A stretch of DNA of 25,733 nt from Planctomycetota bacterium (GTDB taxonomy: Bacteria > Planctomycetota > B15-G4 > JADJEK01): NCBI GenBank assembly GCA_044225365.1, contig JBGAIQ010000072.1:1-25733 (forward strand). Reading direction: 5' to 3'. Below are positions 8,553 to 17,846 of the stretch, in pieces. Every line of letters begins with the position of its first letter. Positions within the stretch are counted from its first letter, which is position 1. The position numbers and the translations under genes are program-made. The notes under the pieces are model-generated. The model was given only the letters and a program-made list of their open reading frames with translations, was not told the origin of the DNA and searched no databases.

Positions 8553-8632
8553 GGACCGCCGGGCTCCAGCCCGGCATCCGAATGGACACTTCGTTCCATC
8601 CCAAAAAGCGCCGGGCTGGAGCCCGGCGGTCC
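8553..8632. repeat. REPIN/BIME-like inverted REP doublet
   Basis: Perfect 23-bp inverted repeat GGACCGCCGGGCTCCAGCCCGGC (8553-8575 and 8610-8632). Each arm is itself a hairpin, and the element is intergenic. Confidence 0.88.
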
Positions 8633-8680
8633 CGAAGCGCGAAACTTGCCGCTTCGGCGCGACTGCGTTACAACGACGCC

Positions 8681-9472
8681 ATGGACGATCGCAGGACCGA
8701 ACTCGAGCACCGCTACGGACCGCGCGTCCACGTGCTCGCCGATCCGTTCGTCTGCGGCCTCCTCGGTCGGATCGGCTCGCCCGAGGTGAAGCCACCGCTC
8801 CTGCTCGATCTCGTCCGCACGTTCTACGCGACGATGCTCGCACGAGTCGTCGCGAGCGAGTTCCCCGCGACGGAACAGGCGATCCACACGCGCATGCGCG
8901 AGCACACCGAGCGCGGCGTGTGGCGGGGCAAGGCCGTCGCGCGCGACACTCGCGTCGCGATCGCGAATGTGATGCGCGCGGGCAATCTGCCGTCGCTCAC
9001 CTGCTTCGAACGCCTGACGGCGCTCCTGGACCCCGACGGGATCCGCATCGACCACTTCTACTTCGCGCGGCGGACCGACGCGAACGGCCAGGTGATCGGC
9101 GTCGATAGCGCCGGCAGCAAGGTCGGGGGCGGCATCGACGGCGCGGTCCTGCTCATTCCCGATCCGATGGGAGCGACGGGCAGCACCACGATCGAGACGC
9201 TGCGGGCCTATTCGAAGTTGCGAGCCGGTCGGCCTTCCTCCGTCATCGCGATGCATCTCATTGTGACGCCCGAGTACATCCGACGAGTCCTCGAAGAGGC
9301 CCCGGAAGTCGTCATCTACGCGGGCCGCGTCGATCGCGGGATGTCGGATGCGAGCGTCCTCGCGACGATGCCGGGCACGCACCTCGAGCGCGAATCGGGC
9401 CTGAACGAAGTGCAGTACATCGTGCCGGGCGCCGGCGGACTCGGCGAAGTCCTCACCAACGCGTTCGTTTGA
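8681..9472 (+). CDS. upp: Uracil phosphoribosyltransferase-like protein
   Basis: PRPP-binding motif LIPDPMGATGST, VMRAG, and C-terminal LNEVQYIVPGAGGLGE (canonical LNxxGYIVPGLGDAGD). A divergent member of the family. Confidence 0.75.
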   Translation: MDDRRTELEHRYGPRVHVLADPFVCGLLGRIGSPEVKPPLLLDLVRTFYATMLARVVASEFPATEQAIHTRMREHTERGVWRGKAVARDTRVAIANVMRAGNLPSLTCFERLTALLDPDGIRIDHFYFARRTDANGQVIGVDSAGSKVGGGIDGAVLLIPDPMGATGSTTIETLRAYSKLRAGRPSSVIAMHLIVTPEYIRRVLEEAPEVVIYAGRVDRGMSDASVLATMPGTHLERESGLNEVQYIVPGAGGLGEVLTNAFV

Positions 9473-9506: not shown

Positions 9507-10499
9507 ATGAGTCGACCCGTCCCCTCCGTTCCTTCCGATCCGCCTGAACCGACGGCCGCGAGCGGACTCGCACTGCTTCGTCACCTCGAGATCACGCGCC
9601 TGCGTTTCGTGGCGCGCGCCATGGACGCGATCGATCTTCGTGAGTTCCCCGGCAGTGCGCTGCGGGGCGGGCTGCTCGTCGCGCTGTTCGATGTCGGTTG
9701 CGTCGCGGTCCATCGCCAGTGCGAGGAGTGCGCTTTTCTCGCCGACTGCGCGGTTCCGCGCGTGCTCGGCCGGGAGTCGCCGCGAACGGATCGCGGGAAC
9801 CATGGGTTCTTCACCCGTCCTTATCGGATCACCACGGCGCATGCGCCTCCGCGAATCGAGCGCGGAGCGACGTTCGAATTCGGAATCGATCTCTTCGGCG
9901 AAGCCGCGGAATTCGCTGCGCTCCTCCGCACGGCGGTGATTCGGCTCGGCGAGCGGGGGCTGGGGCGGCGCCGCAGCCGGTTCGATGTGGAATCCGGGGG
10001 AGATTTCGAGGCCTGCGCGCCACGGCTCATGGGCGACGAGATCGCGGCTCGAATCCGGGATCTGCCGACCGATCGGCTCCTGCTTTGCTTCGATTCGCCG
10101 CTTCGTTTGCAGGCAAGAGGGCACGCCCTCACCGAATTTTCCTTTCTCTCTCTCATGGCCAACCTGTTGCGGAGAGCGTCCGGTCTGATGGAATCGCACG
10201 GACGGGCACAGGTCGAGGCTTTGGCCCGGCCGCTCCTGGAGCGAGCTTCTCGAGTCGTGGTGATCGCTGCGTCGTGGACGAAGCGCGATCAGGTACGATT
10301 CTCCTCGCGTCAAGGTCGTGCGATGAATCTCCACGGTGCGCAAGGCCAGGTCGAAGTCGCGGGCGATCTCGCGGCTTTCGTGCCCTGGCTCGCGTTCGGT
10401 GAGATCGCGGGCGCCGGCAAGGGCACGACCTTCGGCCACGGATCGATGCGAGTGCTCGCGACGAACCCTCCGCCCGCGATGGGCGAATCGAGTGGATAG
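9507..10499 (+). CDS. cas6: CRISPR pre-crRNA processing endoribonuclease Cas6 (Cys4-containing type)
   Basis: N-terminal FPGSALRGG and C-x6-C-x2-C-x5-C cluster, plus FDSPLRL and RFSSRQGRAMNLHG. C-terminal G-rich loop GAGKGTTFGHG. Confidence 0.88.
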   Translation: MSRPVPSVPSDPPEPTAASGLALLRHLEITRLRFVARAMDAIDLREFPGSALRGGLLVALFDVGCVAVHRQCEECAFLADCAVPRVLGRESPRTDRGNHGFFTRPYRITTAHAPPRIERGATFEFGIDLFGEAAEFAALLRTAVIRLGERGLGRRRSRFDVESGGDFEACAPRLMGDEIAARIRDLPTDRLLLCFDSPLRLQARGHALTEFSFLSLMANLLRRASGLMESHGRAQVEALARPLLERASRVVVIAASWTKRDQVRFSSRQGRAMNLHGAQGQVEVAGDLAAFVPWLAFGEIAGAGKGTTFGHGSMRVLATNPPPAMGESSG

Positions 10500-10531
10500 A
10501 CCTGCAGAGTAGAACGGAACGGTACAAGAGC

Positions 10532-11806
10532 TTGAATCGCGACGAACTCCGTCAGGATGTGACGAATCGACTCGACCGTGCTGCGGCGCTCGCCGGAGGC
10601 ACGGGAGAGGATCGCATCCTCGTCGGGGCCCGGGTTCATGGCGGACTCGAATACGCCTGTTCGACGACGTCGCGATCGAGCGATACCTCGGCGATGGAAG
10701 CCTCGGGAACGGTGGCCGAGTTCCATGGTCGTGCCGACGCGCTCGCCCGCGCCGTTGCGGCCGCGGCCCAGGCGCTCGGCACGGCAGCGTTCGGCTCTTC
10801 GCATCCGCTCGACTCCTTCCTCCGCATCGGCAACGACCGCTTCGTCGCCGTGATGCCGAGTTCGACCGAAGTCGACGCGCGCCTCACCGAGACGCGAGCG
10901 ACGATCGAAGCGGAATGGCTCGGCTGCTTCGAAGGCGCGGTCGATATCGCAATCGCCTGGGTGCGCACGACGACCAGCGAATTGAAGAACGCCGCCACGG
11001 CGGCGCGACTCGAGGAAGGCCTCACCCGTCGCGAGCGCACGCCCGCGCTCGACGCCCTCAGCGGATCGAATCCGTTCGGTCCCTTCGCCAGCGCGCCGCC
11101 GGTTCCTGGCCAGCGCGAGGCATTCGAGACGAAGCCTCTCGGTGTGCTGGTCTCGCGTCGCCTGCATCGAAGCGTGCCGGGCGACGACCTCGTCGCGGTC
11201 CTCGCCTCCGATCTCGAACGCGTGGAGTGGATCCGCTCGCGCGACGACCTCGCGTCGCTCGCGTCGGCCGCAGGGGACGTGGCGGTGGGGCCGATCTCCT
11301 CCGTCCTTGCGCTCGCTGCCACACCCTTCGAGTTCGAGAGCGCGATCGCGATCGAGGGTGCGCGCGGCGAGCGCGGCCTCGAAGGCGCGCTCGCTCGGGC
11401 CGTCACGGCGCCGAGCGGTCGTTTCCATGTCTTCGGCGTCCGCGCCCAACGCGCGCGCTTCGCCGAGGGCTTCGCACTCGGCAAGGATCTCGCGCCGCTC
11501 GCGCGCTGCGACGAATCCGCGATGCGGGGTCTCCTCGAAGTGGCGATCGCCCTCGACGAAGGAATGGACCGCGCCCCTCTGATGTTGCTGTCGCGCTGGC
11601 GCGCAAGGGCCCACGCCCTCGCCGCTCGCCTCGGCATGAACGAACGCGCGCTGCGGCACGTCACGGACGATGCATCGTCCGAGCGCCGCGCGCTGAAGAC
11701 CCTCATCGGTGAATTCCCGCGCTGGTTCGATACCGGCGCGGCGCGAATTCCCCTCTACTGCGCGTTGCTCGAAGCGGGCGTCGCGACGGAGGCATCCTCG
11801 GCATGA
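10532..11806 (+). CDS. cas10: Highly degenerate, truncated Cas10/Csm1-like large subunit (424 aa)
   Basis: Sits between cas6 and csm2 with an ATGA overlap. Palm1-like segments ILVGARVHG..FHGRA..SFLRIGNDRFVAVMP..WLGCFEGAVDIAIAWV and Palm2-like segments VAVLASDLE..SAAGDVAVGP..SAIAI..RFHVFG. No HD domain and no GGDD. The TTG start is uncertain. Confidence 0.65.
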   Translation: MNRDELRQDVTNRLDRAAALAGGTGEDRILVGARVHGGLEYACSTTSRSSDTSAMEASGTVAEFHGRADALARAVAAAAQALGTAAFGSSHPLDSFLRIGNDRFVAVMPSSTEVDARLTETRATIEAEWLGCFEGAVDIAIAWVRTTTSELKNAATAARLEEGLTRRERTPALDALSGSNPFGPFASAPPVPGQREAFETKPLGVLVSRRLHRSVPGDDLVAVLASDLERVEWIRSRDDLASLASAAGDVAVGPISSVLALAATPFEFESAIAIEGARGERGLEGALARAVTAPSGRFHVFGVRAQRARFAEGFALGKDLAPLARCDESAMRGLLEVAIALDEGMDRAPLMLLSRWRARAHALAARLGMNERALRHVTDDASSERRALKTLIGEFPRWFDTGAARIPLYCALLEAGVATEASSA

Positions 11807-12507
11807 ACGAGAACGAAACCAACCCCGAAGCGACGTCGAATCCGATGTCCGAAGGATCGCCGCCGCCGGCTCCCCCGGCTGCTCAGGCCCCAGGCGAGGC
11901 CGGATCCAACACAGGTAACGAGGGCGCCGGCCCGGGCGAGAGTCCGAACTCCGCCGGTGGCGACGCAGCCGCGGGCGGCGAACAGCAAGGCCGCGGCGAG
12001 CGCCGCCGCAAGGGCAAGCGCGATCGCGGCAAGGGCGGCGGTCACGGCCCCGGTGGGCAAGGCGGTCCCGGTCGTCCCCAGAACCAAGGCCATCCGCGCG
12101 ACGGGGGTCATGGCGGCGGACATCGCTACGTCGAGGACCGCATCGACATCGACGCGGAGCAGCTCGCCCGCGAGACGCGCTACATCACGGCGGACCGCAT
12201 CCGTCCGATCGCGTTCCTCACCGCGCAGGTTCGGCGGTTGCTCGGATCGCCCGATTCGCACGATCGGCGCGAGGCGCGGCGTTGCCTCGTGCTCTTCAAG
12301 TCGCGCGTCGCGTTCATGGCGGGTCGCGAGACCGGCCGCGAGCGCAGCGGCTTCGTGAAGATCCGCGACTTCATGCTGCGCGGCATCGAACAGGTCACGC
12401 GCGATCGCGAGACGCTCGACCCGCTCCAGGTGCGCAACTTCCTCGATCAAGTCGACGCCTACGTCGGCTACCACCGTTTCCACTGCGACGACCGTCGCCG
12501 CGATTGA
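11803..12507 (+). CDS. csm2: Type III-A small subunit Csm2 (Cas11) with ~105-aa disordered N-terminal extension
   Basis: TAQVRRLL (cf. TSQLRKFY), LFKSRVAFMAGR (cf. LKPKLAYAxGR) and FLDQVDAYVGYHRF (cf. FFEAIVAYHKY). Confidence 0.8.
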   Translation: MNENETNPEATSNPMSEGSPPPAPPAAQAPGEAGSNTGNEGAGPGESPNSAGGDAAAGGEQQGRGERRRKGKRDRGKGGGHGPGGQGGPGRPQNQGHPRDGGHGGGHRYVEDRIDIDAEQLARETRYITADRIRPIAFLTAQVRRLLGSPDSHDRREARRCLVLFKSRVAFMAGRETGRERSGFVKIRDFMLRGIEQVTRDRETLDPLQVRNFLDQVDAYVGYHRFHCDDRRRD

Positions 12508-12524
12508 ACGAGAAGACGACGAAC

Positions 12525-13337
12525 ATGACGAATACGACGAACGACGCAGCGCGCGGCATCTCCTTCAAGGGTCAGGTCGTGATCACCGGCGTGATCGAGT
12601 GCCTGTCCGGCCTCCACGTGGGCGGCAATCGCGACGCCTTGAACCTCTCCGGCGTCGAACTCCCGGTCGCGCGCGACCCGGCGACGCGCATGCCGATCAT
12701 CCCGGGTTCGAGCCTCAAGGGGCGCATGCGCGCCTTGCTCGAAGTGCTGCGCGGGAAAGTCCGCTTCGAGCGCGGTCAGGTCCGCGGTTCCGATGGCGAA
12801 CCCGATTCGATCGACCTGCTGTTCGGTACCTCCGGCAATCGCCGCGGCGGGCCGACCCGCCTCGTCGTGCGCGACGCGACGGCGCTGGCGAGCGATTCGC
12901 GCGAATCGACCGTCGCGTTCTGGGCGGCTCTCGACAGCGAGGGGCTCGGCACCGAGGTGAAGGCCGAAGCGGCGCTCAACCGCGTCACGGCTGCCGCGCA
13001 GCCGCGCCAGGTCGAGCGCGTCGTCGCGGGCTCGCGCTTCGAGTTCGAACTCGTGCTCTCGGTGTTCGATCAGCGGGAGGGCGAGGAACTCCTGCTCAAG
13101 GACGTCGTGATCGCGCTCCAACTCCTCGAGGACAGTTATCTCGGCGGCCACGGCACTCGCGGTTACGGCCGCGTGCGGATCCTCCTGCGCGAGAATCCCG
13201 CGATCGCGACCGCTCGCGATTACGAATCGGGCCGTCGCAAGACGAAGCCGACGGGCGACCTCAAGGCCCTCTCCGATATCGACGCGGACGGATGGGTCGC
13301 CGCGGCGAAGCAGGCGTTCTCCCAGAGCCCAACGTGA
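12525..13337 (+). CDS. csm3: Type III-A backbone RAMP Csm3 (Cas7 group)
   Basis: SGLHVGG..PVARDPATRMPIIPGSSLKGRMRALLE, GPTRLVVRDA, TEVKAEAALNR, PRQVERV and LLEDSYLGGHGTRGYGRV. Confidence 0.95.
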   Translation: MTNTTNDAARGISFKGQVVITGVIECLSGLHVGGNRDALNLSGVELPVARDPATRMPIIPGSSLKGRMRALLEVLRGKVRFERGQVRGSDGEPDSIDLLFGTSGNRRGGPTRLVVRDATALASDSRESTVAFWAALDSEGLGTEVKAEAALNRVTAAAQPRQVERVVAGSRFEFELVLSVFDQREGEELLLKDVVIALQLLEDSYLGGHGTRGYGRVRILLRENPAIATARDYESGRRKTKPTGDLKALSDIDADGWVAAAKQAFSQSPT

Positions 13338-14230
13338 AGCAGATCTACCTGAAGCCGCGGGGCGCGTTTCGCGCGCCCCCGCGTTCCGACACGCTCTTCG
13401 GCCTCATCGCGCATGCGATTCGCGCGGTGTACGGACGGGCGTCCGTCGAACGCTTCCTCGCTCCCACGTTCGAAGAGCCGGCGGGAACGCCGCTCTACGT
13501 GACGTCGGCGTTTCCGTATCTCGAGACGGAGCGAGGTCGGCTTCACTTCTTTCCGGCGCCGTTGTCGCACGGCCCCGCGGGCTACGTCGAGGACGCCGAG
13601 TTCCTCGCTTTCGTGACCGGACAGAAGGCGACGGCGGACATCTCGCCCCTCGCCGAAGGAATGCTGCGAATCGATCGCCAGGGGCACAGCCCCGTGCAGA
13701 CGCTCGCGCGACCGGGAGGCTTCTTCTTCCTCGCCGCGGGCTCGGGTGAGCACTACCTCGAAGCGGCCCTCAAGTATCTCGAACGCTCGGGCTTCGGCGG
13801 CGGAGCATCGCGCGGCTTGTCGCAATTCGATGCCGAGCTCGTCGACACCGAATTCGTCCGTCTCGCCCAGCCGGGCGAATACGGAGTGCTGCTCTCGCTC
13901 ATGCATCCCACCGCGGAGGAGCGCGAGCTGATCGCGCGCGAGGCTCGGGCCGATAGCCGCATCGCGTACGCGATCGAGCGGCGTCAGGGCTATGCCAGCG
14001 CGGCGTTCGTCGATGACGTCGCGGCTGCCGGCAGTGGCCGGAAGTCGGCGCTCGCGATGCTGGCCGAGGGCTCCGTGATCCCGCGCGCCACCTCGCGCGC
14101 CTGCGGCGCGGCGCCGGTCGTCGGCACGGCTCGCGATTCCGCCTCCGAATTCAAGATCGTGCAGTCCGGATTCGGTTTCCTCGTCCCGATCGTCGCGGCC
14201 AAGGTCTCGGCGTCGGAGGCCGTCGCATGA
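13334..14230 (+). CDS. csm4: Type III-A RAMP Csm4 (Cas5 group)
   Basis: GTG start overlaps the csm3 stop (GTGA). Motifs PRSDTLFGLI, YVTSAFPY, FFPAP, G-loop GFGGGASRG and MLAEGSV. Confidence 0.88.
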   Translation: MKQIYLKPRGAFRAPPRSDTLFGLIAHAIRAVYGRASVERFLAPTFEEPAGTPLYVTSAFPYLETERGRLHFFPAPLSHGPAGYVEDAEFLAFVTGQKATADISPLAEGMLRIDRQGHSPVQTLARPGGFFFLAAGSGEHYLEAALKYLERSGFGGGASRGLSQFDAELVDTEFVRLAQPGEYGVLLSLMHPTAEERELIAREARADSRIAYAIERRQGYASAAFVDDVAAAGSGRKSALAMLAEGSVIPRATSRACGAAPVVGTARDSASEFKIVQSGFGFLVPIVAAKVSASEAVA

Positions 14231-16038
14231 AGTTCGTCCTGCGCGTCGAATCTCCGCTGCACCTCGGAATCGGTCAGGACCAGGTCCTGTCGTGGCTCGA
14301 CTATCACCTCGAGGGCAAGATCGTCCACGTGCTCGATTGGGAGAAGGTCTTCGCCGCGGCCAGCGGTGACGACGAAGGCAAGCGCGACGCCATCCTCGAG
14401 AAGTTCACGGCCTGGTGCGACAAGACCACGCGCGCGCTCGACGACGCCGCGGAAGCCGCGCAGAAAGCGCCCTCGCGCGAACGCGCCGAGATCCTGCGAC
14501 GGGCTCGCGATGAATCGAGTCCCGCGCGATTCTTGCGCGACGACCTGTCCGACGACGGCCTCGCGAAGCGCCTGCGCGACGGCGAATTCGATCGCTACAA
14601 GGCCGAGTTCAGCGGCGGGCGCCTCGATCGCCGTCTCGAGATCCGGCGCACCGCGAAGGACGCGCTCGGAAACCCGACCATCCCGGGTAGCGCGATTCGC
14701 GGCCAGATTCGCACGGCGCTGCTGCATTCCGCGCTCGCGACGGGCGGCGCGGAGATCGTCGACAAGGTGATGATGGGCAGTCGTGACGCCGAGGGCTGGA
14801 AGAAGAGCCTCGACGATGCGACGCCGGGTCGCTCGCGCTTCCTGTTCGGCGATGCGCTGGAACGCGCCGTGCTGCGTCCGGGCTCGCGAATGGACGATCC
14901 GCGATTCGACCTGATGCGTCTCCTGCGCATCTCCGATCCCGTGAAGTCGCGCGCGACGCTCATCGTGGTGCGCGAGAGTGCATTCCTCATCAAGCCCGGA
15001 ACCCTCAACCCGCTCGCGCCGGTGGTCTGCGAAGCGATCGCCGAGGGCTCGGAGTTCGAGTTCGAGTTCCGCGCCGACGCGGGGCTCGTGAAGGGCGTCG
15101 CGGCGGCGGACGGCGGGACGCACGCGTTCGTCAGCGACGAGTTCTGGTCGCAGTTCACACGCGTCTTCGGCGTGACGCGCGACGAGGCGAGGACGCTCGA
15201 CGAAGCCGCGCTCGAGGAGCGCATGCTCTCCTCCATCGAGGTCGCATTCGGCAGCCGGTTCAGCGCGATCTCGACTCGCGAACGCGCGTGGTTCGATCGC
15301 GCCGGTGCTCCGGCGGACGCACCGCTGAGGCTGTTCCACGAGGGCCTCGGCAAGATCGAAGGCCGCGTGCCCCTGCGCCTCGGTCTTGGCGCGGGATTGC
15401 ACGGCACGACGCTCGTCCTCGCCCTCGACTCGGACGCCGCCCTCGCCGAGCCGCTCTCGCGCGCTCTTGCGCGCGCCGGACTCGGCCTCGATCCGCGAAA
15501 GCGCCGCGAGCGCGCCGAGCGCGAGAAGATCGCGATCGAGAAGGCTCGGCGCGAAAACTCGCAAGGCGGCAGGGGCGGTCCCGGATTGCGCCCGGAACTC
15601 CTCGCCGAGAAGCGCGATCCCAAGCAATTGCCGGTGTCGCGCCATTTCACGATGGACGGTCCGCTGCCCGACCTCTTCACCGGGTGCGTGACGTTTGCCC
15701 GCGGCGAGATCTCGGGCGAAGCGATCGCACGCGAAGCCACGCTCGCCGCGAAGACTCGCGCATTGCGCGCGCCGCAGCCGGAACCCGAGCGCCGCCCCGA
15801 CCGTCGCCCCGACAACCGTGCCGACGACCGTCGTGGCGGGCCGCCGGGTCAGGGAGGCCGCCGTGACGACCGGGGTCGGCGCCCGGACCGTGATGACCGT
15901 CGAGACGATCGCGGACCGCCGCGTCGCGACTCCGGGCCCGATCGCCGACCGAAGGGCCCGCCGCCCAAGCCGCTTCCCGATCGTCCGGCGAACGAGGACG
16001 AGATCAAGCGTCTGCTCGATCGCTTCGGGCGGCGTTGA
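14227..16038 (+). CDS. csm5: Type III-A RAMP Csm5 (Cas7 group) with R/D/G/P-rich C-terminal tail
   Basis: ATGA overlap with csm4. Motifs ESPLHLGIG, PTIPGSAIRGQIRTALL, DLMRLLRISD and LRLGLGAGLHGTT. Confidence 0.88.
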   Translation: MKFVLRVESPLHLGIGQDQVLSWLDYHLEGKIVHVLDWEKVFAAASGDDEGKRDAILEKFTAWCDKTTRALDDAAEAAQKAPSRERAEILRRARDESSPARFLRDDLSDDGLAKRLRDGEFDRYKAEFSGGRLDRRLEIRRTAKDALGNPTIPGSAIRGQIRTALLHSALATGGAEIVDKVMMGSRDAEGWKKSLDDATPGRSRFLFGDALERAVLRPGSRMDDPRFDLMRLLRISDPVKSRATLIVVRESAFLIKPGTLNPLAPVVCEAIAEGSEFEFEFRADAGLVKGVAAADGGTHAFVSDEFWSQFTRVFGVTRDEARTLDEAALEERMLSSIEVAFGSRFSAISTRERAWFDRAGAPADAPLRLFHEGLGKIEGRVPLRLGLGAGLHGTTLVLALDSDAALAEPLSRALARAGLGLDPRKRRERAEREKIAIEKARRENSQGGRGGPGLRPELLAEKRDPKQLPVSRHFTMDGPLPDLFTGCVTFARGEISGEAIAREATLAAKTRALRAPQPEPERRPDRRPDNRADDRRGGPPGQGGRRDDRGRRPDRDDRRDDRGPPRRDSGPDRRPKGPPPKPLPDRPANEDEIKRLLDRFGRR

Positions 16039-16733
16039 GCGCGAGTTCCCTACCGATGCTCGTCCTCTTCGACATCGATGGCACGATCCTCGTCTCCGGC
16101 GGCGTGGGCGTGAAGGCGTTCCTGTCGAGCTGCACCGAAGTGTTCCAGATGGAAGCGGCGGACGATCGCAAGCGCTTCTCGGGCGGCATGGACCCGCTGA
16201 TCTTCCGCGACCTCTGCGCGCTCCATGGAATCGAGGATTGGCGGCGGCATCACGACGGATTCCGCGAGCGCTACACCCAGCGCCTGCGCGAGCACCTCGC
16301 CCCTCCCGGCATCGTGAAGATCCTTCCGGGCGTGCGGGAGCTCGTCGATGCGATCGATTCCGATCCGCGGTCGTCGCTCGGACTCGTGACGGGGAACTAC
16401 CCCGAGACGGGGCGCTTCAAGCTCGAGCAGACGGGCATCGATCCCGATCGATTCGAAGTCGCCGCGTGGGGCGTCGACGGCGATCATCGGCGCGATCTGC
16501 CGCGCGTCGCGATGGAGCGATTCGCCGCTCGCCGGGGCTCGCCGATCGATCCGTCCAAAGTCGTCGTCATCGGCGACACGCCGCACGACGTCGACTGCGC
16601 GAAGCACAACGGCTGTCGCGCGCTCGGGGTCGGCACCGGGCTCTTTACTCCCGCGGAGCTGAGGGAGTGCGGCGCCGATCTCGCGGTCGAGAATCTCGCC
16701 GATACGAAGGCGATCCTCGACTGGCTGTTCTGA
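16035..16733 (+). CDS. HAD-superfamily phosphatase
   Basis: Motif I LFDIDGT, LGLVTGN and motif IV VIGDTPHD. The start is either TTG 16035 (overlapping the csm5 stop) or ATG 16056. Confidence 0.9.
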   Translation: MSASSLPMLVLFDIDGTILVSGGVGVKAFLSSCTEVFQMEAADDRKRFSGGMDPLIFRDLCALHGIEDWRRHHDGFRERYTQRLREHLAPPGIVKILPGVRELVDAIDSDPRSSLGLVTGNYPETGRFKLEQTGIDPDRFEVAAWGVDGDHRRDLPRVAMERFAARRGSPIDPSKVVVIGDTPHDVDCAKHNGCRALGVGTGLFTPAELRECGADLAVENLADTKAILDWLF

Positions 16734-16734
16734 G

Positions 16735-17757
16735 TCAGTCGAAGCGCGAAGCGCAAGCCGCGAAGACGCGATCGACTTCGATCCTGCGCATGCAGCGATG
16801 ATCGATCGGGCAGACGCGCAGGAGACACGGCGAGCATTCGACCGGCTCACGCAGGAGCGTGTGGATCGAGCCGTAGGGCGGCGTCGTCACGGGATCCGTG
16901 GAACCGAAGATCGCGACGACGGGCGTGCCGACGGCGGAAGCGACGTGCATCGCGCCGGTGTCGTTCGAGACGGCGAATCGACAAGCCTCGAGAACGCCCG
17001 CGAGCTCGAGGATCGTCGTCTTGCCCGAGAGGTCGAGGACCTGATCCTTGTCGATCTCGTGACGGATGCGGTCGCACACGTCGCGATCGCCCGGACCGCC
17101 GAGCAGGACGAGTTGCGCGTTCAGATCGAGGAGGAGTCGCTTGCCGAGGGCGACGTAGCGCTCCTCCGGCCACTGCTTCGCGGTGCCGTACTGCGCTCCA
17201 GGGATGATGCCGACGATCCGATCCGCCCGCTTCTCGAGGAGCGGAGCGAGGTGCACCTTGGCGCGCGCCTTCGCATCGTCCGGCACCACGATTCGCGGCG
17301 TGATCGGCTTCGAATCGATGCCGAGGGCTCCGAGAAGGTGATGGTAGTAGTGGACGCGATGGATCTTGAGGAGCGAGGGATCGCGCGGGATCGGATCGGT
17401 GAGGAGCAGATCGCGGCCCGAGGCGCGGTACCCGATGCGGCGCACCGAGTCGGAGATCAGCGCCGTCCAGGCCGCTCCGAACGAGCGGGGGAGCACGAGC
17501 GCGACGTCCGCGGAGAACGCCCGCAGCCGCGCGACGAAGTCGGTGAAACCGACGACGCGCCGCATCCCGTCTTGCCGCTTGTAGACGATCACTTCGCTCG
17601 CCGCGTTCGACGCCCGATACAGATCGGCGACCGTGCCGCGGGCCACCACGCCGACTGCGGCGTCCGGATAGGCCGTGCGCAGGCCATACAGCGTCGGCAG
17701 TGACATCACTGCGTCGCCCAGCCAGCTCGGACTGAAGAAGAGGAACCTGCCCGCCAT
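16735..17757 (-). CDS. waaF: Lipopolysaccharide heptosyltransferase II (GT9)
   Basis: PSWLGDAVMSLP, PGAQYGTAKQWP, VSNDTGAMHVASAVGTPVVAIFGST and CSPCLLRVCP. Confidence 0.9.
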   Translation of the reverse strand: MAGRFLFFSPSWLGDAVMSLPTLYGLRTAYPDAAVGVVARGTVADLYRASNAASEVIVYKRQDGMRRVVGFTDFVARLRAFSADVALVLPRSFGAAWTALISDSVRRIGYRASGRDLLLTDPIPRDPSLLKIHRVHYYHHLLGALGIDSKPITPRIVVPDDAKARAKVHLAPLLEKRADRIVGIIPGAQYGTAKQWPEERYVALGKRLLLDLNAQLVLLGGPGDRDVCDRIRHEIDKDQVLDLSGKTTILELAGVLEACRFAVSNDTGAMHVASAVGTPVVAIFGSTDPVTTPPYGSIHTLLREPVECSPCLLRVCPIDHRCMRRIEVDRVFAACASRFD

Positions 17758-17846
17758 GTTCAATCTTGCGATTATAAGCCGCTCGAAAGCTGGATCCGCC
17801 TCTCCGCACACGAATTCGACGACGACCCCGTAGAATCCGCGTCCCC

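Follow-up and report, generated by a model that had tools for sequence, protein, structure and literature searches.

A type III-A (Csm) effector module of the Phycisphaeraceae with a reduced Cas10 homolog and no CRISPR array found, probably restricted to RNA-only activity

The window studied here, 25,733 nucleotides (nt) of DNA from a Planctomycetota bacterium, is one whole contig (JBGAIQ010000072.1; C62) of the host assembly GCA_044225365.1 (G000; 6.53 Mb in 103 contigs, 94.3% complete, 0.03% contamination, 65% GC). Six consecutive genes on its forward strand (9507-16038) encode Cas6, a Cas10-like protein, Csm2, Csm3, Csm4 and Csm5, and every reading frame is intact. With a probability of roughly 0.55, we regard this cluster as a CRISPR effector module of type III-A (Csm) that is functional, vertically inherited in the family Phycisphaeraceae and reduced to RNA-only activity. 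An earlier note on this DNA had described the same gene order with intact frames and ATGA or GTGA overlaps; the order and frames are borne out by profile matches and coordinates (Table 1), and the coordinates confirm 4-nt overlaps at three junctions (ATGA at 11803-11806, GTGA at 13334-13337 and ATGA at 14227-14230).

Csm3, Csm4 and Csm5 exceed the NCBIfam equivalog cut-offs for type III-A. Csm2 exceeds the Pfam cut-off and stays below that of NCBIfam (TIGR01870, 22.7 versus 30.6 bits); five PADLOC Csm2 models match it, the best with an E-value of 1.2e-7. Cas6 matches PADLOC model PDLC01477 (E 2.4e-67; residues 26-316 of the protein versus positions 2-294 of the 296 in the model), its G-rich loop GxGKGTTFGxG is kept in eight family sequences, and it is presumed to be the endoribonuclease that makes the guide RNA.

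The second gene product, of 424 amino acids, scores above threshold with no model in Pfam, NCBIfam or PADLOC (TIGR02578, 11.5 bits versus a cut-off of 170). Sequences of this kind are rare, with six relatives among 5.8 billion clustered proteins and 15 among 1.84 billion cluster representatives, and a search with the Cas10 alignment gave no related loci in genome contigs or metagenome contigs. An AlphaFold2 model built from 14 family sequences (pLDDT 83.9, pTM 0.81) shows two beta-alpha-beta-beta-alpha-beta units (residues 27-147 and 203-292) and, C-terminal to them, a helical domain (307-414), and Foldseek comparison with the PDB returned only Csm1 chains among the matches listed (to rank 46), with a probability of 1.00 and TMq values of 0.46-0.62. 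By its predicted fold the protein is a Cas10/Csm1 homolog, though no sequence model places it as a member. We interpret the model as Palm1, a Palm2 that is degenerate and a D4-like domain made of helices, with the HD nuclease domain and the Zn-finger domain D2 absent; it opens straight with Palm1, in agreement with the alignment. At the position of the Palm2 GGDD cyclase motif a MAFFT alignment, on which the approximate column assignment depends, places AAGD in the focal protein, and one or both acidic residues are missing at this position in 12 of the 14 family Cas10 proteins, the exceptions reading SGDD and GVDE.

Relatives in other genera have longer Cas10 forms of 563-711 amino acids, which carry some 150 additional residues at the N terminus as a helical domain. 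The model of one such form matches Csm1 along its whole length (E 5e-14), and a profile of the long forms matches solved Csm1 (E 2.2e-10), the family sequence 'gsgdl' being aligned to 'GGDDV' of Csm1. No histidine is invariant within the N-terminal 150 residues of the six long forms, and the first helix of the domain reads LLRExGR, the corresponding Cas10 sequence being LLHDIGK. The earlier note had held that both the HD domain and the GGDD motif of Cas10 appeared lost or altered and had proposed structure prediction as a check: the fold of the remnant matches Csm1, and the model, the alignment and the AAGD sequence agree with both losses. Close relatives with a full-length, active Cas10 and an array, which the note had named as evidence against its view, did not turn up, the long forms having neither a conserved N-terminal histidine nor an intact GGDD. 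With no HD domain and a degenerate GGDD motif in Palm2, the complex is predicted from sequence to be unable to cut DNA or to make cyclic oligoadenylate (cOA), and its outcome would for that reason be limited to the bound transcript.

The best-conserved stretch of the Cas10 remnant, residues 166-187 with the family-invariant motif RRxxTP.LDAL...FGPF, belongs to the interface predicted with Csm4. Complex prediction for the two proteins gave a score of 0.86 against 0.18 for the best control. This passes a mark that 58 of 80 solved complexes attained, as did 2 of 110 mismatched pairs; at least 64% of the contacts were common to the runs, with a partner pLDDT of at least 82. Because Csm1-Csm4 complexes have already been solved, this pass may show likeness to those complexes and not binding by the present copy.

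The RNA-cutting subunit presents a different picture from Cas10. Csm3 chains in the PDB match the focal Csm3 with an E-value of 8.4e-40, and its residue E45 (codon GAA) aligns with the catalytic aspartate of T. onnurineus Csm3, a column that holds alanine in chain 6o7h. The position is Asp in all five Csm3 relatives from genome loci. Among 30 database proteins with at least 56% identity to the focal Csm3, the 29 that cover the site carry Asp (21) or Glu (8) and nothing else; an unrelated, ordinary type III-A Csm3 in the same alignment likewise has Glu. In a maximum-likelihood tree, from which fragment P0024 was excluded, the 29 proteins group in a single clade with a long stem (length 1.5; support 100/99). 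Seven of the eight Glu forms fall within one diverged subclade, through which the Glu state persists, and the remaining one is placed outside it; on the full 36-row tree, four changes are needed to explain how Asp and Glu are distributed. Because an acidic residue occupies the catalytic position in 29 of 29 proteins, RNA cleavage by Csm3 is probably retained, and so strict a retention of acidity speaks for continued use of the site. The complex thus looks RNA-only, not inert. The earlier note had described the Csm3 aspartate RNase as lost or altered and all three activities of the system as disarmed: the site is indeed altered, to E45, but the loss of the RNase and hence the threefold disarming find no support.

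The module belongs to one family. All genomes considered here are metagenome-assembled genomes (MAGs), 70-95% complete. This Csm3 occurs as a single copy in each of 12 Phycisphaeraceae genomes, the family of the host, with 60-67% identity, and at E <= 1e-10 in none of 69 other Planctomycetota genomes, 30 of them from the same order. The full operon is found in the same order in the relatives wherever the extent of the contig shows it. In tblastn comparisons with the relatives' loci Csm3 is 58-66% identical and the neighboring upp 55-63%. The upp gene adjoins cas6 in seven of the 11 loci whose sequence extends upstream of cas6, and a GT9 gene lies downstream of csm5 in five loci, with antisense-frame matches in L013, L015, L022 and L027; a HAD hydrolase gave no tblastn match in any relative's locus, and histidine kinases, transporters and a beta-lactamase-fold protein are also found in the flanks. 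Of the synteny that the earlier note had thought worth looking for, the operon and upp recur and the HAD gene is not conserved.

Variation at the strain level points the same way. Four independent metagenome runs from other samples contain a strain about 97-98% identical to the host, which bioreactor or sludge communities harbor. Among the 40 best-supported of 297 strain differences, the six module genes account for 31, with 22 synonymous changes and 9 non-synonymous ones; none of the 40 is in the Cas10 gene, and the indels in the tails of Csm2 and Csm5 total multiples of three. As a partial sample, this variation fits purifying selection. That the cluster is a decaying type III-A remnant on its way to loss is contradicted by these data and very improbable. 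Such decay would account for the lost HD, the degenerate GGDD and the lack of an array or adaptation module, and in the 81%-complete relative G006 the cas6 gene appears as two tblastn pieces in different frames (locus L012, G006:C395, 7740-8674), either by frameshift or by assembly error. However, all six frames are intact here, and so are those in the loci of relatives that were examined, with that cas6 as the one exception; the module occurs in each of the 12 family genomes, its Csm3 is conserved as well as upp, and synonymous changes exceed non-synonymous ones. The statement of the earlier note that this is not simple decay holds for a module that is intact, conserved throughout the family and array-less.

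Two subunits carry family-specific tails, as had been noticed before. Csm2 starts with a low-complexity extension of about 110 amino acids, composed of a Pro/acidic stretch, a basic patch of the type RRKKRRR and a Gly-rich stretch, which is present in six of six aligned family members with variable sequence. Csm5 measures 564-603 amino acids in the family versus 364 positions in the family model; its C-terminal tail of about 100 amino acids consists of a variable R/D/P-rich linker followed by the motif [LV]PDRPA..E[IL]..L[LM]..FG, which is kept in five of five aligned members and was found nowhere else in a six-frame translation of the host genome. Csm5 is known as the contact point for the degradosome and 'housekeeping' nucleases. 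Because type III-A immunity of S. epidermidis uses housekeeping nucleases with Csm5 as the contact, it is plausible, if speculative, that by analogy the Csm5 tail recruits a partner. The use of the degradosome and of 'housekeeping' nucleases in S. epidermidis type III-A immunity is reported in two eLife papers (PMC6447361 and PMC9762709).

The tails would also suit a guide-independent complex, in which the RAMP filament is a structural or RNA-chaperone scaffold with functional tails and Cas6 is a sequence-specific RNase acting on cellular RNAs. The conserved low-complexity tails of Csm2 and Csm5 and the conserved end motif of Csm5 are consistent with this, as are the empty searches for a guide source in the host genome and 14 module loci. 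We consider such a scaffold improbable: the strict Asp/Glu conservation where Csm3 cleaves speaks for catalysis with a paired target, and the five-subunit set and Cas6 are kept in canonical order.

The searches for a guide source covered both the locus and the genome. No CRISPR array was found in the window, and no cas1, cas2, csm6 or csx1 among the open reading frames (ORFs) scanned, in agreement with the report of none near the module. The genome-wide search that had been suggested agrees with this in the 94%-complete host: a gene search found no Cas1, Cas2, other RAMP gene or other Cas6, and two k-mer scans of the whole assembly for arrays returned only clusters resembling repetitive extragenic palindromes (REP) or bacterial interspersed mosaic elements (BIME), tandem duplications and satellites. 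Arrays were likewise absent from 14 module loci of relatives, where the same scan detected a positive-control array, and from the 396-kb module contig of the best-assembled relative (G005; 20 contigs, about 5.9 Mb); draft assemblies can miss arrays. Csm6 or Csx1 was found neither among the scanned ORFs of the window nor in the relatives' flanks, a genome-wide CARF search not being made, and an RtcR-type regulator was the sole CARF-type protein seen. Cas3 did not exceed its cut-off in any of five genomes.

Cas1 occurs in two of the 12 family genomes, both times with another system. In G003 (locus L033, G003:C118, 1-7067) a 1571-amino-acid protein with a Cas12b (C2c1) RuvC-like domain and a 600-amino-acid Cas4-Cas1 fusion are accompanied by three 39-nt repeats at the contig end; this locus is type V. 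In G007 a canonical array of 23 repeats (locus L035, G007:C331, 935-2590) has a 36-nt repeat ending in ATTGAAGC, a tag that we take to be Cas6-type. The array is accompanied by cas2, cas1 fragments and an IS4-like ORF, with cas4-cas1 on another contig (loci L034 = G007:C204, G007:C179). A second cluster with five RAMP matches lies on a separate contig of G007 and is more likely the owner of the array than the module, whose cas6 is off the contig end in this genome. The other 11 family genomes contain neither the G007 repeat, at up to three mismatches, nor a triple ATTGAAR-tagged array.

These observations bear on the possibility that the module is a normal antiviral effector which uses CRISPR RNAs (crRNAs) from arrays elsewhere, unassembled or belonging to another system, and which confers immunity by RNA cleavage alone. 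Many type III loci without arrays of their own borrow crRNAs, according to PMC12669027; Cas6 is a typical family member, G007 holds cas4-cas1, cas2 and a 23-repeat array, and all the genomes are MAGs. We nevertheless judge this reading unlikely. Cas1 is missing from 10 of the 12 family genomes, the 94%-complete host has no Cas1, Cas2 or array, the G007 repeat and ATTGAAR-tagged arrays do not recur in the other 11 genomes, and the array of G007 has a likelier owner in the second RAMP cluster. Moreover, one fixed chromosomal position, with presence in 12 of 12 genomes inside the family and 0 of 69 outside it, would be unusual for a defense system, and the neighborhood is one of housekeeping genes and no defense island.

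Dispersed repeats of the host were considered as another source of hairpins. A REP/BIME-like hairpin element matching GGACCGCCNNGCTCNNNCNNGGC has 214 copies in the host genome, the start of the window included. It consists of GGACCGCC followed by a 7-bp hairpin, the stem variants of which keep pairing (ACG/CGT, GGG/CCC, GCG/CGC, AGG/CCT); in the window it is found at 1-174 and 8609-8628, and elsewhere in the genome it often forms tandem clusters or lies at contig ends. The element is absent from 39 of 40 relatives searched, G004 having two matches without the hairpin, and it looks like a lineage-specific burst. As a family-wide Cas6 substrate it was rejected, given this absence. The clusters were also rejected as CRISPR since the 'spacers' are themselves repeated, which makes them BIME-like, and the two-copy repeat candidates that were opened proved to be tandem duplications, REPs or satellites. 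A second dispersed family in the host genome is made up of GGCGGCGGCTGCGATCCGT/ACCGCC units that recur about every 70 nt; it is found on many contigs (C13:47751, C15:52155 and C75:99051 among others).

For the RNA-only effector that we favor, the following mode of action is proposed. Cas6 would release a guide RNA from a transcript that carries a hairpin, and this guide would be loaded on a complex of the Cas10 remnant bound to Csm4, as the model supports, with Csm3 as the backbone, Csm2 as the minor filament and Csm5 as the cap. This complex would bind complementary RNA and, judging from residue conservation, cut it via the acidic Csm3 residue. Because arrays and adaptation genes are lacking and the neighbors are housekeeping genes family-wide, the guides probably originate at a fixed locus that is either non-CRISPR or orphan, and the module would more likely serve to control transcripts or survey RNA than to provide adaptive immunity. 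The vertical inheritance, the housekeeping neighbors and the absence of Cas1 in 10 of 12 family genomes make a non-defense role plausible. The tails of Csm2 and Csm5, including the Csm5 motif, would probably recruit a cellular partner, which is speculative. Only tentatively do we propose a domesticated, vertically inherited core cluster, in which Cas6 would take guides from ordinary (non-CRISPR) transcripts of the cell, the HD-less and cyclase-dead Csm complex would bind and slice specific RNAs of the host or of parasites, and the tails would tether the complex to a cellular partner. Such a cluster would amount to an endogenous and programmable regulator acting after transcription, or to a machine for RNA surveillance.

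Several points weigh against reading the module as a vertically inherited RNA-only effector. Cas6 is an ordinary, high-scoring member of the CRISPR Cas6 family and fits a canonical repeat existing somewhere; the 23-repeat array of G007 with its cas1, cas2 and cas4 could serve the module in trans. The genome-wide array scan covered G000 alone and, in G005, the one 396-kb contig, and in MAGs arrays are often unassembled or unbinned. A guide RNA, a repeat and a target are not among the things found, and the guide step is inferred. The E45 form of Csm3 departs from the canonical aspartate, and RNase activity of the Glu form is only predicted. The count of 22 synonymous and 9 non-synonymous changes derives from the 40 best-supported differences only, and no RNA runs carrying the locus were found.

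The canonical Csm complexes of type III-A (those of T. onnurineus, S. thermophilus, S. epidermidis and L. lactis; structures 6muu, 6ifn, 7uzw, 9ash) have the same gene set and order, and the shared equivalog passes of Csm3, Csm4 and Csm5, the Csm3 chain match (E 8e-40) and the Csm1 fold relate the module to them. The differences are that the solved Csm1 chains among the matches listed have 616-780 residues versus 424 amino acids here, and that the canonical systems possess HD, GGDD and an array, whereas the present module has no HD, AAGD in place of GGDD, and no array, cas1, cas2 or csm6. Csm2 and Csm5 moreover have added disordered tails here, and inheritance of the module is vertical, within a single family. 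It is filed as a variant derived from type III-A that lacks the III-A features HD, GGDD and array.

Like HRAMP, a derived class 1 system of Haloarchaea, the module is a conserved RAMP complex that lacks both an array and adaptation genes, which suggests exaptation; HRAMP differs in retaining only diverged Cas5 and Cas7 homologs, whereas the full Csm set and Cas6 are recognizable here. The RNA-guided, RNA-only cleavage proposed here, without enzymatic output from Cas10, is also the mode of III-E (Cas7-11/gRAMP) and type VII. These rely on fused effectors or on a beta-CASP nuclease and are usually found next to arrays, unlike the multi-subunit Csm complex of the present module.

A different route of reduction is seen in the III-G and the III-H subtype. 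According to PMC12669027, these share with the module an inactivated Cas10 Palm, the lack of a cOA-sensing ancillary gene and of an adaptation module, and reductive evolution, and III-G loci are array-less as well. They keep an apparently active HD, have lost the catalytic aspartate of Cas7 and are predicted to cut DNA (PMC12669027). Here this pattern is reversed, with HD gone and the acidic Cas7 residue kept. Furthermore, Csx26 is found in III-G, and the C-terminal domain of Cas10 gives way to Cas11 in III-H; neither applies to the module, which has a separate Csm2 and the helical domain H307-414 in its Cas10. Subtypes III-C, with an inactive cyclase, and III-I, with a Cas10 without the N-terminal cyclase domain, also have inactivated or lost signaling and loci that are often array-less, and type VII keeps only a Cas10 remnant (PMC12669027). 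In PADLOC labels III-C is grouped with Cmr models and III-I has a fused Cas7-11i, whereas the subunits here are separate and Csm-type. The combination found here is absent from the subtypes with an inactivated or lost Cas10 Palm (III-C, III-G, III-H, III-I) in the available text of PMC12669027. A literature search found no description of such a system or clade; the supplementary data of PMC12669027 may list the clade.

Table 1. Positions of the module genes and of other features in the window
Feature	Position	Strand	Evidence and remarks
upp-like (uracil phosphoribosyltransferase, UPRTase, family)	8582..9472	+	PF14681 E 1.2e-12; upstream neighbor, outside the module
cas6, 330 amino acids	9507..10499	+	PF10040 53.7 bits versus cut-off 25, E 3.4e-14
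Reduced Cas10/Csm1 homolog by predicted fold, 424 amino acids, TTG start	10532..11806	+	Fold match to Csm1
csm2 (Cas11 small subunit), 234 amino acids	11803..12507	+	PF03750 (Csm2_III-A) 26.5 bits versus 24.8
csm3 (Cas7 backbone RNase), 270 amino acids	12525..13337	+	TIGR02582 190.3 bits versus 90, E 3.9e-56
csm4 (Cas5-like), 298 amino acids, GTG start	13334..14230	+	TIGR01903 86.1 bits versus 55
csm5, 603 amino acids	14227..16038	+	TIGR01899 60.9 bits versus 38.3
HAD-family hydrolase	16035..16733	+	PF13419 E 2.4e-13; start overlaps csm5 stop by 4 nt
GT9 heptosyltransferase (waaF-like)	16735..17811	-	PF01075 E 1.7e-39; convergent downstream neighbor
RtcR-type sigma-54 activator	23342-24991	-	PF06956 E 4e-74 and PF00158

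The neighbors of the module are housekeeping genes and no defense island is present; the flanks that had been called ordinary (upp, HAD, waaF) are confirmed as a UPRTase-family gene, a HAD hydrolase and a GT9 heptosyltransferase. The rest of the contig encodes a topoisomerase, a Ser/Thr kinase, ABC transporters and the RtcR-type regulator. The upp-like gene is single-copy in the host genome. Its true start is probably near 8681, relatives aligning only from about residue 36, and the first approximately 33 codons of the longest ORF (8582-8680), which include the REP-like hairpin at 8609-8628, are probably untranslated. A forward-strand ORF of 301 amino acids (orf301, 16798-17703) was rejected as a gene, being the antisense frame of the GT9 gene; many long wrong-strand ORFs occur in this genome of 65% GC. 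A link between RtcR, whose N-terminal domain is presumably CARF-related, and the module was rejected as well: the gene lies 7.3 kb downstream of csm5 here and in no relative's fetched locus. Contig C72 begins with a 96%-identical copy of the first 51 residues of RtcR. An Rfam scan of the window gave no family at gathering score, and the promoter and terminator scan of the window was uninformative (0 and 6 sites versus 0.4 and 5.0 expected).

Type III defense is thought to act mainly via the DNase of Cas10 and cOA signaling, with RNA cutting by Csm3 seen as minor and self-limiting. In the Phycisphaeraceae module neither Cas10 output appears to remain, whereas selection maintains the RNA-cutting residue, Cas6 and every structural subunit. 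The module has become fixed in a single lineage, unaccompanied by arrays or adaptation genes. It would be a natural test of a type III complex working by RNA cleavage alone. The 424-amino-acid Cas10 remnant would mark a minimal Csm4-docking core and could inform compact, RNA-only Csm tools without collateral signaling. For the family itself, the module is a candidate for CRISPR exaptation in a free-living bacterium and not in a mobile element.

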